From: a virus
Taxonomy: Duplodnaviria > Heunggongvirae > Uroviricota > Caudoviricetes
IMG/VR virus record: IMGVR_UViG_638341084_000022
Length of the DNA stretch: 13,034 nt
Strand: one strand, 5' to 3'
Of the stretch, positions 7,088-11,982 are shown piece by piece. A program made the translations under genes and the position numbers. Within the stretch, counting starts at the first letter, position 1. Each line of letters begins with the position of its first letter. Under the pieces are notes generated by a model. That model was not told the DNA's origin. It was given only the letters and a program-made list of their open reading frames with translations, and searched no databases.

Positions 7088-7243
7088 AGCTTCAGCCCCT
7101 TGTATCCGTTAAATGATTCGGCAACAATCATCACCCACCACGCGCGTAATCTCACCCCTGCGCCGTTCTCCCGACCCGGCGACAACAAAAAGCAGTAACC
7201 CCCTCCGCACGCACATGCGACCATGCCGCACAGGGAGGGAAAG

Positions 7244-8353
7244 ATGACCGACACCACCATGCAATTGCTCAGTCAGAGCACAGACCCCGTGAAAATGCCG
7301 GATTTTGATATTCTCGCGGAGGGTAAAACGCTGTCAGGCGTGGCAGAGCGCCTGATGAGCCTGTCACTGACCGACAACCGGGGATTTGAAGCGGACCAGC
7401 TCACCATCACGCTGGATGATGCGGATGGTCAGTTGCAGCTACCGCCACGGGGCGCGCGCCTGACGGTTCTCATTGGCTGGAAAGGCGAACCGCTGACAGA
7501 AAAAGGCTCTTACATTGTCGATGAAATCGCACACGAAGGACCGCCGGACAGGCTGACTGTTTCAGCCAGAAGCGCAGATTTTCGGGATGAATTTAACGTT
7601 AAACGTGAGGTGTCCTGGCATGATGTGACCGTTGAGCGTGTGGTATCCGCCATCGCTCATCGGTACGGTCTGAAACCGCAAATCAGCGAAATGCTGATGC
7701 ATATCGAAATCGACCACGCCGACCAGACCGAAGAAAGTGACATGTCCTTCCTTACGCGCATGGCGGAAATGCTGGGCGCAATCACCACGGTAAAAAGCGG
7801 TAATCTGTTATTCATCATGCCCGGCGGTGGCGTGAACGCACAGGGCCAGCCGTTGCCATCGTTCGCCATCACACGCAGCAGCGGCGATCGCCATCAGTTC
7901 CGCATTGCTGACCGCGAGGCGTATACGGGGGTACGCGCTTACTGGCTTGATCTTAATTACGGGAAAAAGAAAAAAGTCAGCGTGAAACGCCGCAAACCGC
8001 CAAAACCCAAAAAGGAGAAAAGCAGCAGCCGTGAAGGTGATTATATGGAAGGCGCGGAAGGCAATGTGTTTGTGTTACGCAAGACTTATCAGAACGAGCA
8101 GGCAGCAAGACGCGCAGCGGCGGCAAAGTGGCAGCAGCTACAACGCGGAGCCGCATCATTCTCCATCATGCTGGCACGCGGACGCGCAGAACTCTACCCC
8201 GAAATGCATGGCACGGTAACAGGCTTTAAAAGCGAGATTGATAATCAGGACTGGATTATTGCAAAAGCCGAGCACACCATTGATAACAGCGGCTTTACCA
8301 CACAGCTTGAGCTTGAGGCAAAAATCCCGGAATGGATAGCAGAAACAGAGTGA
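7244..8353 (+). CDS. D: P2 gpD-like tail protein (late gene D), full length
   Basis: Translation (...LSLTDNRGFEADQLTITLDDADGQ..., ...VDEIAHEGPPDRLTVSARSADFRDEFNVKREVSWHD..., ...DREAYTGVRAYWLD..., ...GEYMAGEA-like GDYMEGAEGNVF...) is colinear with P2 gpD as recalled. The second ATG at 7244 has a GGGAGGG Shine-Dalgarno; the ORF-track start at 7223 is probably too far upstream. Confidence 0.88.
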   Translation: MTDTTMQLLSQSTDPVKMPDFDILAEGKTLSGVAERLMSLSLTDNRGFEADQLTITLDDADGQLQLPPRGARLTVLIGWKGEPLTEKGSYIVDEIAHEGPPDRLTVSARSADFRDEFNVKREVSWHDVTVERVVSAIAHRYGLKPQISEMLMHIEIDHADQTEESDMSFLTRMAEMLGAITTVKSGNLLFIMPGGGVNAQGQPLPSFAITRSSGDRHQFRIADREAYTGVRAYWLDLNYGKKKKVSVKRRKPPKPKKEKSSSREGDYMEGAEGNVFVLRKTYQNEQAARRAAAAKWQQLQRGAASFSIMLARGRAELYPEMHGTVTGFKSEIDNQDWIIAKAEHTIDNSGFTTQLELEAKIPEWIAETE

Positions 8354-8473: not shown

Positions 8474-9496
8474 TTAATACGCATTTAATTTAAATTTGTA
8501 TTTGCCTTCTATGTAATGGATAAATTCAATTATGCTTTTTTCTATCGCATCTAATATATGAATATATCCATCCCGATTTAAGGTCCTATCCAACTCAAAG
8601 TGATGAACTATCCCATGTCTATATTGTATGATTTCAGAAATTCGATTCTCAAGAAAATCAACTGATTTTCCAATTCTTTTTTTCTTATAAAGAATCGCTC
8701 TCACATCTATATCCAGCCACTCTTTATATGCTTTATTTAGGTGGGTTAAGTTTTGAAAAGTGTAATTTCTTGCAATAACACTTTCTATTGAAATATTTCC
8801 TTTCTCTATCTCAAGCAGAATATCAAAATCAACTTTTTGCTTATACGATGTTCTTTTTGCTATTGCGAAAGGATCGTACTTTATAAGTATTTGAAAAGCT
8901 CTAGAGAAAAAATATTCAAACATAGCAACCGCAAAAGGTACTAATCCATTATATATAACTCTACTGGGATCCATACATTGCATGTAATCAAAGTATTCGG
9001 ATAAGCCGCCATCTTCCGGTAGGTTTAATTTAATAGAAGGTTCAGGTAAGGCATGTTTAACAGCGGAAATCTCATGATGGACATGATTAAATATTGAAGA
9101 AATGCCACGACTGATCGGACTACTAGAATCCTTCCATAGAGGAGCGTACCTATTTTTCCCATAATCACCTATAAGTGTTCCACCAAAAAGACTCCGTGCG
9201 CCTTTTAGAACATCATTAAGCATTTTTACATCATGCCAACTAGCGCTATATAAATTACGCACATGCAATGCCCATTTATTACCAGATATGTGTAGTTCGT
9301 CATTTGAAACAGGATATATATCAGCCGAAACTCCATCTGTAGATTTGAAGTCCGTATCATCAAACCAAGAGTAATTCAACGTTCCTTGGGGCCATTCCCA
9401 CAAATGTTTACACCTTTTAAAACCTAAATTTTCAAGGTAATTTTTAAGTTCGTTTCTAGTTGCTTTTTTAGGGTACAGCGTTATATCTCTTCCCAT
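8474..9496 (-). CDS. hypothetical protein, AT-rich cargo gene inserted between D and ogr; possible HEPN-like C-terminal domain
   Basis: An uninterrupted 340-codon ORF with an AGGTGA Shine-Dalgarno about 8 nt upstream of ATG 9496. It is visibly more AT-rich than the flanking tail genes and uses AGA/ATA codons. The C-terminal region has an R-x4-H arrangement (QYRHGIVHH, residues 293-298, nt 8620-8603) followed by a predicted final helix, as in HEPN nuclease domains. I recognise no family with confidence. Confidence 0.75.
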   Translation of the reverse strand: MGRDITLYPKKATRNELKNYLENLGFKRCKHLWEWPQGTLNYSWFDDTDFKSTDGVSADIYPVSNDELHISGNKWALHVRNLYSASWHDVKMLNDVLKGARSLFGGTLIGDYGKNRYAPLWKDSSSPISRGISSIFNHVHHEISAVKHALPEPSIKLNLPEDGGLSEYFDYMQCMDPSRVIYNGLVPFAVAMFEYFFSRAFQILIKYDPFAIAKRTSYKQKVDFDILLEIEKGNISIESVIARNYTFQNLTHLNKAYKEWLDIDVRAILYKKKRIGKSVDFLENRISEIIQYRHGIVHHFELDRTLNRDGYIHILDAIEKSIIEFIHYIEGKYKFKLNAY

Positions 9497-9687: not shown

Positions 9688-9948
9688 ATGTTCCGTTGTC
9701 CGCTTTGTGCCGCATCTGCCCGTATCCGCACAAGTCGTCCGGAAAATGATTCAAACACCGTGCGGCAAAAATATTACCAGTGTAACAATCTGGAATGCGG
9801 CGTATGCTTCTCAACACTGGAAGCTTTCCATAAATTCACATCGAAACACGCCTCCGGCGTTCACTCTTCAGAAGGTATCCCGTGGCATGAGCTACCAGCT
9901 TCACACAGGGGAAACAATCAGATGAGTTTGCCTTTACCTAAGAATTAA
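9688..9948 (+). CDS. ogr: Ogr/Delta-family zinc-finger late transcription activator
   Basis: MFRCPLCAASARIRTSRPENDSNTVRQKYYQCNNLECGVCFSTLEAF... carries the C-x2-C...C-x4-C zinc-binding pattern and the RTSR motif I recall from P2 Ogr. An AAGGGAGG Shine-Dalgarno sits 5 nt upstream, with a TACAAT -10-like hexamer at 9645-9650. Location downstream of D matches P2. Confidence 0.85.
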   Translation: MFRCPLCAASARIRTSRPENDSNTVRQKYYQCNNLECGVCFSTLEAFHKFTSKHASGVHSSEGIPWHELPASHRGNNQMSLPLPKN

Positions 9949-9957
9949 CAAGCAGAA

Positions 9958-9986
9958 TTGCCGGAGTAACAAAAAAGCGATAGATT
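9958..9986 (+). promoter_or_regulatory. candidate sigma70 promoter for the hok-like mRNA
   Basis: TTGCCG (9958-9963), a 17-bp spacer, then TAGATT (9981-9986). The predicted start near 9993 coincides with the 5' element GGGTGCCTT that is complementary to the 3' end of the locus. Hexamers are weak matches. Confidence 0.3.
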
Positions 9987-10138
9987 ACGCGCGGGTGCCT
10001 TTCGGCTGATGGTCGGAGGGAATACCCGAAGGCCAGATGTGGAAAGGCCCCGGAAAACACTTTTGTTTAACCGAGGCCCTAACCGTCTACCCTAAGCAAG
10101 TGAAAGGTTAGCGCCTCTCCGGAAAAGGAGCAAGTGCT

Positions 10139-10279
10139 ATGTCGCAAAAATCGCTTACAGCCATCACGTTCTGCGTGACGGTAATCCTCATCATCTGGAT
10201 GTTGCACGGTTCGCTGTGCGAAATACGGATGAGTTTCTGGGGAGCGGAGTTTGCGGCGTTCTTACAGTGTAAGCAGTAA
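10139..10279 (+). CDS. Hok/Gef-family type I toxin (46 aa small membrane peptide)
   Basis: This small ORF is not in the six-frame track (under 60 aa). Translation is MSQKSLTAITFCVTVILIIWMLHGSLCEIRMSFWGAEFAAFLQCKQ: an N-terminal transmembrane helix, then the SLCE(I/L) motif and an AAFL-x-CK tail, as in HokA/Hok as recalled. An AAGGAG Shine-Dalgarno sits 8 nt upstream. Fold-back complementarity of the mRNA ends supports a hok-type locus (see findings). Confidence 0.7.
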   Translation: MSQKSLTAITFCVTVILIIWMLHGSLCEIRMSFWGAEFAAFLQCKQ

Positions 10280-10288
10280 GGAAACCGC

Positions 10289-10310
10289 GACGGGGGAGTA
10301 ATCCCCCGTC
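10289..10310 (+). other. perfect 9-bp stem-loop with GUAA tetraloop immediately 3' of the hok-like ORF
   Basis: GACGGGGGA (10289-10297), loop GTAA, TCCCCCGTC (10302-10310). No U-tract follows, so this is more likely an mRNA structural or stability element than a terminator. Confidence 0.5.
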
Positions 10311-10360
10311 AATCGGTTGCCAGGGTAAGGTCGATAAGGCACCCTATCTCACGGCTCTAA

Positions 10361-10396
10361 ATGCAAAAATTCCATGAAACTGTGGGATTTTTGCAT
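10361..10396 (+). terminator. 13/14-bp inverted repeat hairpin; candidate 3' terminator of the hok-like transcript or an operator
   Basis: ATGCAAAAATTCCA (10361-10374), 8-nt loop, TGGGATTTTTGCAT (10383-10396), with one mismatch. The right arm contains a T5 run. It lies just downstream of the 3' fold-back element at 10336-10344. Confidence 0.35.
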
Positions 10397-10540
10397 CACT
10401 ACTGATACAGATCTGACCTTCTTTATGTCTCACTCTATACCAGCTAATCAATTGACACTTATCAATAAAAAAAAATCTGATAAAATCAAAATGTTTTGTA
10501 ACAAATATCAACTCGTATTGATCCAAAGGAGGCGGATTAC

Positions 10541-10873
10541 ATGGCATTAATCAAATGTCCTGAATGCCAGAAAGAGGTGAGCGATTCAGCATTGTATTGC
10601 CCTGCTTGCGGTAAACAAATAAAAAAACTTAAGCGTTCATTTTTTGGAAAGCTCATTAAGTGGATTTTTATATTATTTAATATTTTTATGATCTATACGC
10701 TTTTAGTTGGACTGGGAGGCACTAGTGAAATAATAAATAATGCAACATCCGATGCCGAAAAAGCCGGTGTAGTTATTGGTACAGGCTTAGGTTTAATTAC
10801 CATTGGAAGTTTATGGGTTATTGGCGATATCATTATCGGAATTTTAGTGTTTCTTACTAAACCAAAAGGATAA
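10541..10873 (+). CDS. small zinc-ribbon membrane protein (CxxC-x10-CxxC N-terminus, two predicted TM helices)
   Basis: MALIKCPECQKEVSDSALYCPACGK..., followed by two hydrophobic stretches (IKWIFILFNIFMIYTLLVGLGG and VVIGTGLGLITIGSLWVIGDIIIGILVFL). An AGGAGG Shine-Dalgarno sits 8 nt upstream. The gene is AT-rich. Confidence 0.7.
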   Translation: MALIKCPECQKEVSDSALYCPACGKQIKKLKRSFFGKLIKWIFILFNIFMIYTLLVGLGGTSEIINNATSDAEKAGVVIGTGLGLITIGSLWVIGDIIIGILVFLTKPKG

Positions 10874-10877
10874 CAAA

Positions 10878-11771
10878 ATGAAAAATATAATTTTTTCTAT
10901 AGGTGCATCATTTATATCAATTAGTGTACTGCCTGTTCACGCAGCAACTGAACATAATAACTTCAATGCAGTACTCCAGTGCCGAGCAATAGAAAATAAT
11001 AAAGACAGACTTTCTTGTTACGATAAGTCAATACAACCGACTCGAACGAAAGTTGCTGAAAAATTCGAAAGCAGAGATCAATGCCCTGATGAGAAAGATG
11101 ATGACAGACGTTTATCTTGTTATGATCGTTTTTTTTCTCCAACATTTACTCCATCTGTAAACTCAAAATCTAAAACGGAAAAGCCAGTAACAACAGAGGC
11201 TCAGCAACCAAATCTTTCTGAGATATCTAAATGCCGAGCAGAAAATGATAAAGAAGCCAGACTAAACTGCTACGATAAACTATTCCCACAGGATAAAGCT
11301 GTTCAAGCTGAATCAAAATTAGAGAAAGCCACAGATGTAGGAAAATGGCACACATCCATTACTACATCGCCAATTGATGATTCGAAAAATGTAATTTTAT
11401 CGTTAGAAAGTGATGATTATATCAGAACTCCATTTGGAGAAGCGGTTACTCCTACTCTGTTTATAGCTTGCCGAGAAAAGAAAACCGAAGTATTTCTTAG
11501 TTGGGATGTATATTTAGGCCTTGAACAAACCAGCATGCTTTATCGTCTTGATAAACAGAAAGCAGTTGAGCGAAACTGGCTAGTATCTACAGATACAAAG
11601 GCTGTTTTTTATAAAGGTAATGACATTGATTTCATCCGAAAACTAGCCAACTCAAACAAAATGTATACAAAAATAACTCCTTATAATGAGAGCCCTGTAA
11701 GTGCAACTTTCAATTTAAACGGCCTGTCAAACGCGCTAAAACCACTTCAAGCTGCTTGTAACTGGAAATAG
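10878..11771 (+). CDS. secreted protein with three tandem Cys-containing repeats (C-x8-RL[SN]CYD[KR]) and a C-terminal domain of unknown function
   Basis: Sec-type signal peptide (MKNIIFSIGASFISISVLPVHA / ATE). Repeats lie at residues 35-50, 69-84 and 119-134 (nt 10980-11279). It starts 4 nt after the zinc-ribbon gene stop, with an AAGGA Shine-Dalgarno, so is likely co-transcribed. The gene is AT-rich. Confidence 0.75.
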   Translation: MKNIIFSIGASFISISVLPVHAATEHNNFNAVLQCRAIENNKDRLSCYDKSIQPTRTKVAEKFESRDQCPDEKDDDRRLSCYDRFFSPTFTPSVNSKSKTEKPVTTEAQQPNLSEISKCRAENDKEARLNCYDKLFPQDKAVQAESKLEKATDVGKWHTSITTSPIDDSKNVILSLESDDYIRTPFGEAVTPTLFIACREKKTEVFLSWDVYLGLEQTSMLYRLDKQKAVERNWLVSTDTKAVFYKGNDIDFIRKLANSNKMYTKITPYNESPVSATFNLNGLSNALKPLQAACNWK

Positions 11772-11799
11772 CATAAATCATGTGGCTTAGCCACAATCA

Positions 11800-11841
11800 C
11801 AGATAACACAAAGCCCGTGAAAACGGGCTTTGTGTTATCTG
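11800..11841. repeat. perfect 18-bp inverted repeat with 6-nt loop (strong hairpin); possible bidirectional terminator or boundary element
   Basis: CAGATAACACAAAGCCCG (11800-11817), loop TGAAAA, CGGGCTTTGTGTTATCTG (11824-11841). It is preceded by a second small palindrome, TGTGGC-TTA-GCCACA (11781-11795). No canonical U-tract follows on either strand. Confidence 0.6.
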
Positions 11842-11982
11842 TAACTCGAAAATGTGGTCACTACGTGGACACGTGCTGATATAAATCCTTTTATATCAAT
11901 AAATTAAATCATCATTTTTTTCATCAACAAGGATTTTCACGTTTGTGTTACCTGTATGAGACGAGAGTTAACCGGACAAGTG

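Follow-up and report, generated by a model that had tools for sequence, protein, structure and literature searches.

The segment from 9958 to about 10352 of the DNA analysed here (a stretch of 13,034 nucleotides, the window) is very probably a hok/sok-type type I toxin-antitoxin module, which encodes a peptide of Hok cluster 72 and is carried as cargo by a P2-like prophage. The module is of an already catalogued hok/sok type and is neither new nor unannotated in public records. An earlier reading made without database searches (the sequence-only reading) had proposed a hok/gef-type type I toxin, and this is borne out by a Pfam match, by the RefSeq annotation and by covariation in relatives; its description of the locus as unannotated is right only for the 60-aa track of open reading frames (ORFs), because the gene is present in RefSeq as a "Hok/Gef family protein" (WP_000078920.1) and also in phage records. 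The elements of the module, in their order along the window, are the following.

9958..9986, plus strand: candidate hok promoter, with -35 TTGCCG (9958-9963), a 17-nt spacer and -10 TAGATT (9981-9986), read from the sequence
9993..10007, plus strand: predicted 5' end of the hok mRNA, "tac" element GGGUGCCUUUCGGCU, from the start of the RF01794 match, folds and covariation
10009..10095, plus strand: ORF of 28 codons, stopped by TAA at 10093-10095; in some relatives its frame forms an ORF of 60-87 codons that overlaps hok
10037..10111, plus strand: leader ORF of 24 codons, a possible, unconserved mok analogue, with GAAGG 4 nt 5' of its ATG and a stop 28 nt before the hok ATG
10040..10098 (about), minus strand: predicted Sok antisense RNA of ~55-60 nt (5' single-stranded tail, hairpin, UUUCC), from positional homology to annotated sokW of 933W
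10042..10051, plus strand: "ucb"-like internal partner of the 5' element, GAAAGGCCCC, from truncated-RNA folds and relatives
10073..10117, plus strand: predicted Sok-target hairpin GAGGC...GCCUC with a CUAA-containing (YUNR-type) loop, from the 3'-truncated fold
10105..10133, minus strand: candidate sok promoter, with -35 TTGCTC (10133 to 10128), a 17-nt spacer and -10 TAACCT (10110 to 10105), from alignment to 933W hokW/sokW
10125..10130, plus strand: hok Shine-Dalgarno sequence AAGGAG, 8 nt 5' of the ATG, likewise read off directly
10139..10279, plus strand: hok coding sequence, 46 aa, from PF01848, WP_000078920.1 and 45/46 identity to 72_1621
10244..10259, plus strand: coding segment GCGGAGUUUGCGGCGU, predicted partner of the hok start region 10139-10154 in a 14-pair helix
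10289..10310, plus strand: hairpin 3' of the stop codon, with a 9-bp stem and a GUAA loop, from the fold, relatives and hokW
10312..10325, plus strand: segment of the 3'-UTR predicted to sequester the Sok-target loop in the full-length fold, from the helix of the relatives
10329..10344, plus strand: "fbi" fold-back element GGUCGAUAAGGCACCC, from the fold and the alignment of 36 relatives
10361..10396, plus strand: A/U-rich inverted repeat of 15 bp, context-specific, from the fold

The coding sequence is a 46-codon ORF exactly where the sequence-only reading had placed it, and its product is MSQKSLTAITFCVTVILIIWMLHGSLCEIRMSFWGAEFAAFLQCKQ. This peptide matches the Pfam family HOK_GEF (PF01848) with 30.1 bits against a cut-off of 22, its residues 7-44 corresponding to profile positions 5-42 of 42. 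Among its 68 homologues every one with a source name is called Hok/Gef or HokA. The best NCBIfam model is HokA (NF007290, an equivalog model), with 35.8 bits against a cut-off of 89, and the peptide is thus not a HokA orthologue. The product name "MokW-like host killing", given to the ORF in phage records, is a misnomer. The interpretation of homologues of 59-81 aa as Mok-Hok fusions was rejected, their extensions being the result of C-terminal stop-loss. Neither Hok nor the cargo ORFs beside it gave a hit in PADLOC.

The family to which the peptide belongs is Hok cluster 72 in a 2026 preprint by Escalera-Maurer et al. (bioRxiv 10.1101/2025.08.07.668861). Member 72_1621 differs from the window peptide by one residue (V15A, 45/46 identical), and member 72_1589, a variant found beside lom in Stx phages, is 76% identical to it; at the peptide level there is no difference of substance between the cluster and the window. 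The residues conserved in more than 80% of Hok peptides in the logo of the preprint (M1, C16, T18, L30, C31, E32 and E41) are present as M1, C12, T14, L26, C27, E28 and E37, positions being matched through pairwise alignments with Hok peptides, R1 Hok among them. The Shine-Dalgarno sequence predicted for 72_1621 in Table S2 of the same preprint is GGAGC. Both 72_1621 and 72_1589 were included in its toxicity assay, where the only non-toxic peptides among 45 homologues were 19_179, 60_1482 and 69_1540; the exact window peptide is absent from the supplementary text that was searched. By analogy with 72_1621, reported toxic, the window peptide is probably toxic as well.

The second component of the reading is the architecture of the hok mRNA. 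The only exact complement of GGGTGCCTT (9993-10001) is AAGGCACCC at 10336-10344, the pair of 9-nt segments on which a fold-back of the mRNA ends had been proposed, and such a match occurs in 323 of 200,000 shuffles of the downstream sequence (0.16%). In the minimum-energy fold of 9993-10400 (-178.2 kcal/mol, z = -7.66) the two ends are indeed paired: nucleotides 1-15 of the RNA bind 10329-10344 through 9 bp and then, past a one-base bulge, 6 bp. Comparison was made with an alignment of 36 non-redundant relatives (80 near-identical loci came from a viral collection and 7 from a genome collection, several of these 7 looking like contaminated assemblies), to which diversity was added through contigs encoding divergent peptides. 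Their consensus full-length fold is 97.9% paired and contains 21 pairs changed on both sides. In shuffles the number of such pairs is 11.6, and none of 500 reaches 21; slid controls give 2-9. The core of the fold-back, of 7 bp, is 100% paired and kept in all 36 relatives, but none of its pairs is changed on both sides, and the case for its pairing is made by conservation and energy and not by covariation; in the 4-bp extension all 4 pairs are changed on both sides. The predicted pairing of the ends is therefore in excess of chance. The conserved module ends near 10352, ~8 nt past the fold-back element.

A different structure is predicted for RNAs that lack the 3' end (folds of 9993-10314 and 9993-10050). 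In the 3'-truncated fold the 5' element pairs with 10039-10051, and the ucb-like helix, in which 3 pairs are changed on both sides, is 95.7% paired across the 36 relatives. Together with the target hairpin, this alternative pairing is 94.9% paired in relatives, with covariation, and column 10 of the alignment, within the 5' element, covaries with both the fold-back and the internal partners. These two mutually exclusive pairings of the 5' element would form a two-state switch as in plasmid R1 hok mRNA. The Sok-target hairpin, whose loop reads CCCUAAGCA and contains CUAA, is a feature of the 3'-truncated fold alone; in relatives, 97.7% of it is paired. In its place the full-length fold has 10091-10104 paired with 10312-10325, a helix (alignment columns 103-116/340-353) with 93.4% of its cells paired and 5 pairs changed on both sides.

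Two further helices complete the structure. The one formed by 10139-10154 and 10244-10259 is 100% paired in the 36 relatives, with both sides nearly invariant, third codon positions included; it lacks covariation, and we infer this pairing. The 9-bp GUAA hairpin at 10289-10310, already noticed at this position in the sequence-only reading, has an energy of -19.7 kcal/mol (z = -4.9), with 5 of its 9 pairs changed on both sides in relatives.

An Rfam search of the window at gathering thresholds returned no match; a permissive search returned a full-length match to RF01794 (model 1-157) at 9993-10152, with E = 1.2e-10 and 51.9 bits, below the gathering score of 59. This family is labelled "sok", and its consensus reads in the hok-leader sense; the leader in the window is a divergent member of it. 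Weak matches to sR1, CsrC and a flavivirus stem-loop (E 0.13-8.8) were dismissed as chance. The fold-back of the mRNA ends is in this way supported by the predicted fold, by covariation and by a full-length, sub-threshold match which starts at 9993.

The sequence-only reading had found no evident Sok antisense promoter, and here it has to be corrected. The minus-strand TTGCTC/TAACCT pair aligns with annotated sokW and is conserved in the cluster: of the 36 relatives, 33 have TAACCT and 3 TATCCT as the -10 box, 30 have TTGCTC as the -35 box, and the spacer is 17 nt long in every one. Each hexamer agrees with the sigma-70 consensus at 3 of 6 positions, and the promoter overlaps the ribosome-binding region of hok, so that its conservation is not creditable to sok alone. 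The mutagenic primer YO-421 has CCGGCTCG against GTAGGTTAG in 933W, the complement of the sok -10 box (PMC8621323). We infer the ends of the Sok RNA from positional homology to sokW; the predicted RNA folds into a free 5' tail and a hairpin (-23.2 kcal/mol). Upstream of hok, the -10 box (TAGATT, TAGAAT or TAAATT) stands at a constant distance from GGGTGCC in relatives, the flanks further upstream being unrelated. A sigma-70 promoter scan listed neither the hok nor the sok promoter, the candidate hok promoter falling below threshold; homology and conservation are the basis on which both are candidates.

The statement that no mok-type frame overlaps hok was right for the window. An ORF overlapping the hok start is found in ~13 of the 36 relatives and is lacking in ~23. 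The ATG of the leader ORF (10037) is present in 26 of the 36, and the position of its stop, counted from hok, varies between -78 and +137, which means that frame and peptide alike are unconserved. Moreover, a TAG upstream of hok (10109-10111 in the window) is present in all 36 relatives and lies in the hok frame in 35, which excludes an arrangement of the mokW type. As no mok frame overlaps hok, the locus is filed as hok/sok-type without a canonical mok. It is conceivable, though we hold it only tentatively, that cluster-72 modules work without Mok-coupled translation, with Sok acting only through RNA refolding, RNase III cleavage or the leader ORF; the in-frame TAG would then be kept in place by the sok -10 box, to which it is complementary. 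In such a Mok-free arrangement the predicted Sok would be unable to reach the hok ribosome-binding site, and the leader ORF at 10037-10111 ends upstream of hok.

At the 3' side the window departs from its relatives. An inverted repeat claimed at 10361-10396 is present there (15 bp, one of them G-U; -18.1 kcal/mol, z = -5.8), but it lies outside the conserved module and is absent from most relatives; the segment flanking it is confined to 232 of the 5426 genomes. In most relatives an intrinsic terminator, consisting of a GC-rich stem and a U-run, follows the fold-back element at a distance of 20-35 nt. At this position the window has the A/U-rich 15-bp hairpin, with the U-run inside the stem, and no canonical GC-rich stem with a free U-run. 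To learn whether inserted cargo had displaced it, the terminator of the relatives, CCCGCAGCGTAAAAACTGCGGG, was sought in the rest of the window; it gave no match. The repeat is possibly a weak substitute terminator, and a copy in which an atypical hairpin replaces the canonical one could be abnormally expressed.

The window is E. coli chromosome, with a P2-like (Peduoviridae) prophage between pdxB and flk. The suggestion of prophage cargo is confirmed by the presence of the hok module in the sequenced phage P88 and by collinearity with K-12 that begins only at ~11918. The module stands directly downstream of ogr, as had been noted; ogr occupies 9688-9948 (Pfam Ogr_Delta, 48.1 bits). A hok match is found in 1750 of 5426 complete E. 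coli genomes, and an identical 471-nt stretch is present in many unrelated strains. The module recurs at the cargo end of prophages: it follows ogr in P2-like phages, lom in Stx phages and tail-fibre genes in a Salmonella prophage. This recurrence agrees with the enrichment of hok that has been reported for prophages (bioRxiv 10.1101/2025.08.07.668861).

Known systems share most of this layout. The chromosomal hokA-E of K-12 belong to the same Pfam family, HokB-E being 24-30% identical to the window peptide, and the K-12 annotation shows mokC and sokC arranged in this way too; mokC is an in-frame extension of hokC, which in the window is ruled out by the in-frame TAG. The mechanism of plasmid R1 hok/mok/sok (parB) is established from the work of the Gerdes laboratory. 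R1 and the window are alike in the pairing of the 5' element with either a 3' fold-back element or an internal box, and the YUNR target loop, the short 5'-tailed antisense RNA and the post-stop hairpin of R1 are all predicted in the window. R1 Hok is 30% identical to the window peptide, and R1 is a plasmid locus with an overlapping mok, whereas the window holds a prophage locus with an atypical terminator and no such frame; R1, hokC and hokW all have a mok frame overlapping hok. The hokW/mokW/sokW locus of Stx phage 933W/Sp5 (AF125520) is also prophage-borne and has the same -10 box, a GGGUGC 5' end with a complementary 3' end, GGTTAG (the sok -10 complement) at the common position and a post-stop hairpin. 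In 933W, mokW is an in-frame N-terminal extension of hokW, starting in a 15-nt loop segment that is absent from the window. Identity of the window locus with hokW itself was rejected, HokW being a paralogue of 51 aa, ~30% identical, which is found at another site in Stx phages. Experiments have established hokW/sokW as a type I toxin-antitoxin pair (PMC8621323).

By homology to R1 hok/sok and hokW/sokW, the module may be expected to work as follows. A weak promoter (-10 TAGATT) would drive synthesis of a stable mRNA whose 5' end lies near 9993. As long as the RNA is full-length, its 5' element would be paired with 10329-10344, the Sok-target loop with 10312-10325 and the hok start codon with 10244-10259, three pairings that would close the RNA both to ribosomes and to Sok. 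Slow 3' trimming would remove the fold-back element, upon which the 5' element would move to 10042-10051 and the target hairpin at 10073-10117 would form. An unstable Sok (~55-60 nt, minus strand, from ~10097 to 10040) would bind this hairpin and block expression or lead to cleavage; when the supply of Sok ends, Hok would be synthesized and would damage the inner membrane.

Other explanations of the same data differ in how well they fit. That the 9-nt complementarity of the ends is a coincidence, and the ORF a gene for a small membrane protein without antisense control, has next to no probability and is already effectively refuted: although the pair was picked by eye, and so could be post hoc, and the core helix has no pair changed on both sides, the chance rate is low, both 9-mers are near-invariant in the 36 relatives in unrelated contexts, the 4 adjoining pairs are all changed on both sides, 933W hokW has the same design and the RF01794 model begins at the same base. 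It is improbable, but less remote, that the window copy is a decaying or silenced relic, with an ORF which is intact but untranslatable, a broken mok-type coupling frame and a lost native terminator, kept as neutral baggage like several hok loci of K-12, where mokA is a pseudogene and hokA and hokC adjoin IS150 and IS186. In favour of this, the window has a stop, TAA 10093-10095, in the frame that in some relatives overlaps hok, foreign AT-rich sequence stands in place of the canonical terminator, and the hok start codon is still paired in the truncated fold. However, the missing mok overlap is the majority state and the TAG is shared by the relatives, so this is not a lesion specific to the window copy; the ORF and the remaining RNA elements are intact, with covariation, the same 471-nt stretch spans many unrelated strains, and a peptide identical at 45 of 46 positions is reported toxic.

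A further question concerns function. A role in lysis or phage release at induction, as reported for hokW-sokW of Stx prophage Sp5, and not in retention or post-segregational killing, is possible, with a probability well below even; retention, suggested in the sequence-only reading, is likewise no more than a possible function. In that prophage mitomycin C leads to the loss of sokW and to RecA-dependent synthesis of HokW, and deletion of the locus halves phage release (PMC8621323). In the window hok lies directly 3' of ogr on the same strand, and a scan found no same-strand terminator between them, so that ogr transcription could read into hok at induction; such late-phase read-through could be a natural trigger of hok. 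On the other hand, HokW is a different paralogue, ~30% identical, and R1 hok/sok is reported to limit T4 growth, which makes a role in defence equally possible.

The value of the locus as a discovery is low, as RefSeq already has the gene, few type I toxin-antitoxin families are better studied and the peptide cluster is catalogued; a small toxin gene below the 60-aa ORF filter was nevertheless read correctly from raw sequence alone. The preprint that defines the clusters carried out no analysis of Mok, Sok or mRNA structure in them, so the description of the RNA given here is extra detail and not a new kind of system. For cluster 72 the comparison of relatives at the RNA level modestly adds predicted, mutually exclusive dual pairings with covariation, a conserved candidate sok promoter and the absence of a conserved mok.

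The ORF at 10139-10279 (+) encodes a 46-aa peptide, MSQKSLTAITFCVTVILIIWMLHGSLCEIRMSFWGAEFAAFLQCKQ, that passes the Pfam HOK_GEF model (30.1 bits against a threshold of 22). The hok/gef identification proposed by the sequence-only reading is right and well supported, and all the sequence features it listed are found where it had placed them. The peptide scores under the cut-offs of the NCBIfam HokA and Hok-subfamily models and is 20-33% identical to R1 Hok, HokB-E, HokW, PndA and SrnB; a protein search returned 68 relatives, from E. coli, Shigella, Salmonella and Klebsiella, and those named by their sources are all called Hok/Gef or HokA. The locus had been described as unannotated, which applies just to a 60-aa ORF track: RefSeq holds the ORF as 'Hok/Gef family protein' (WP_000078920.1), and the product name in phage records is 'MokW-like host killing', a misnomer when applied to the hok ORF. 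It is already known, as a member of the catalogued Hok cluster 72, which is abundant and for which two tested representatives are given (Escalera-Maurer et al., bioRxiv 10.1101/2025.08.07.668861); 72_1621 and the window peptide are one residue apart, and 72_1589 is the Stx-phage variant of the cluster. In that preprint, 42 of the 45 homologues assayed were toxic, the three exceptions all being outside cluster 72; prophages were enriched in hok, and Mok was left out of the analysis. Seven Hok variants (P0002, P0005, P0007, P0013, P0014, P0017 and P0027) have lost the stop codon and are read into the 3' UTR, giving 59-81 aa; they may be either sequencing errors or real.

The complementarity claimed between the ends of the mRNA is confirmed. 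The exact complement of GGGTGCCTT (9993-10001) occurs at a single site, 10336-10344, and shuffling the downstream sequence 200,000 times gave such a 9-nt match in 0.16% of cases. At minimum energy (-178.2 kcal/mol, z = -7.66 vs dinucleotide shuffles), 9993-10400 folds with its first 15 nt paired to 10329-10344, and the 9-bp GUAA hairpin at 10289-10310 folds as described. In Rfam, RF01794 gave a full-length match, spanning 9993-10152 and starting at the same G as the predicted 5' end, with a score of 51.9 bits that is under the gathering score of 59.

The comparison used 36 loci, left after redundant ones were removed from a set of relatives found in genomes, in IMG/VR contigs, in Stx phages and in assemblies that code for divergent peptides; their alignment starts at the predicted 5' end and stops 6 nt beyond the fold-back element. 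Conservation of the module begins at a -10 box (TAGATT or TAGAAT, 9981-9986) and stops about 8 nt beyond AAGGCACCC, near 10352; its flanks are unrelated from one context to another. In the RNAalifold consensus, 97.9% of cells are paired; both sides have changed in 21 pairs, whereas column shuffles give 11.6 (0/500 reach 21) and slid controls 2-9. The end-pairing helix has a 7-bp core that is invariant or shows G-U changes only, and a 4-bp extension in which all four pairs have changed on both sides. Five covarying pairs join the Sok-target region (10091-10104) to the 3' UTR (10312-10325), and five more support the hairpin 3' of the stop codon. The hok start region (10139-10154) pairs with the AEFAAF codons (10244-10259) in a 14-pair helix, 100% paired, both sides of which are near-invariant, third codon positions included. 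Within the coding sequence, about 23 consecutive nt of 10250-10274 (the GAGTTTGCGGCGTTCTTACA region) are invariant in the 36 relatives even at third codon positions, against an average column identity of 84% elsewhere, which suggests constraint at the RNA level and fits pairing with the start-codon region.

When the fold-back element is removed, the predicted fold (9993-10314) differs from that of the full-length RNA: the 5' element pairs with GAAAGGCCCC (10042-10051), and a hairpin GAGGC...GCCUC (10073-10117) appears, leaving its loop, CCCUAAGCA, exposed. Across the relatives, 94.9% of this alternative structure is paired, and column 10 of the alignment, in the 5' element, covaries with both the internal and the 3' partner. 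As modelled, one 5' element has two mutually exclusive pairings, both kept by compensatory change. The 5' element of R1 hok mRNA likewise has two mutually exclusive pairings, and the arrangement predicted here matches that established model of the Gerdes laboratory.

The statement that no Sok antisense promoter was evident does not hold. The record of Stx phage 933W annotates sokW, mokW and hokW, and alignment of that locus to the window puts the sokW 5' end at about 10098 on the minus strand, with these candidate promoter elements:

10110->10105, minus strand: sok -10 box, TAACCT
10133->10128, minus strand: sok -35 box, TTGCTC, 17-nt spacer

Among the 36 relatives the -10 box is TAACCT in 33 and TATCCT in 3, the -35 box is TTGCTC in 30, and all have a 17-nt spacer. 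A promoter-less sokW, which unmasked HokW toxicity, was built with a mutagenic primer (Takada et al., PMC8621323) that carries CCGGCTCG where 933W has GTAGGTTAG, the complement of the -10 box TAACCT. Both hexamers fit the sigma-70 consensus weakly, and the ribosome-binding region of hok overlaps them. In the predicted Sok RNA, an unpaired 5' tail, complementary to the target loop, precedes a stable hairpin and UUUCC. By the sokW alignment, the conserved promoter boxes and this predicted shape, a sok gene is present at the sequence level.

The absence of mok stands. In hokC and hokW, mok extends hok in frame at the N-terminus, whereas in the window TAG 10109-10111, part of the sok -10 complement, is in frame with hok, as it is in 35/36 relatives. 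An overlapping ORF of 60-87 codons is found in about 13/36 relatives, and the same frame ends in the window at TAA 10093-10095. ATG 10037, with GAAGG upstream, is found in 26/36; its ORF has no fixed end, stopping between -78 and +137 relative to hok. Mok is not conserved in cluster 72.

The inverted repeat at 10361-10396 does fold (15 bp, one G-U pair). It had been counted as part of the hok architecture, but it lies outside the conserved module. Most relatives have a GC-rich stem and a U-run 20-35 nt past the fold-back element; in the window, unrelated AT-rich sequence takes their place from about 10353. It is present in only 232/5426 genomes, and at least one plasmid has the hok module directly followed by the part of it that starts at about 10426. 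The repeat therefore occupies the expected terminator position, outside the module and without canonical form. A long perfect hairpin at 11796-11842 (CACAGATAACACAAAGCCCG-tgaaaa-CGGGCTTTGTGTTATCTGTA), just 3' of the TagO-like gene, is probably a terminator.

The 471 nt around the locus are 100% identical in many E. coli chromosomes, IHE3034 among them (1750/5426 complete genomes hold a match), and the genes around hok make up the right end of a P2-like (Peduoviridae) prophage:

within the prophage right end: tail sheath gene
7223-8353: gpD, tail gene D
8474-9496, minus strand: 340-aa ORF between tail gene D and ogr, AT-rich (GC 0.30-0.38)
9688-9948: ogr, before hok in gene order
10541-11771, plus strand: zinc-ribbon membrane protein (110 aa) and TagO/VasI-like protein (297 aa), after hok and before the insertion's right junction
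after the TagO/VasI-like gene: host genes flk and yfcJ

The 340-aa ORF, hypothetical in RefSeq, has a sub-threshold Pfam HEPN_RiboL-PSP score (22.5 bits, cut-off 28.4) and no match in PADLOC; it could be defence-type cargo. Together the zinc-ribbon and TagO/VasI-like genes make an AT-rich stretch with a GC of about 0.35, and a type VI secretion accessory-like gene is unusual cargo for a P2-like prophage.

Collinearity with the K-12 pdxB-flk intergenic region starts only at about 11918, so the window is inserted DNA up to there (junction about 11917). Since the same module also follows tail gene D in sequenced phage P88 (a circular record) and in other Peduoviridae, hok is phage cargo, as the sequence-only reading had suggested. 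Many IMG/VR predicted prophage contigs (e.g. L014, L019, L022) stop 3 nt past the hok match, at the stop codon, and their boundaries seem to be cut at the gene call, not at an att site. Enterobacterial hok on contigs labelled Planococcaceae MAG, Vagococcus sp. and Xanthomonas pisi (L003, L004, L007; peptide identities 100%, 100% and 74%) is probably contamination of those assemblies. Some Salmonella loci carry tandem pairs of cluster modules about 490 nt apart (L102, 2501-3131; L103, 2501-3135), each with separate 5' and 3' elements.

Mobile elements that are otherwise unrelated carry the module at their cargo end. In P2-like phages, both of E. coli and of Salmonella, it comes after ogr; in Stx phages its place is after lom, and in one Salmonella prophage after tail-fibre genes. 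Plasmid-like Salmonella contigs have it next to a relaxase gene. Among relatives, hok/sok of plasmid R1 acts in post-segregational killing. It is also reported to reduce T4 growth, and hokW-sokW is reported to aid lysis and phage release at induction (PMC8621323).
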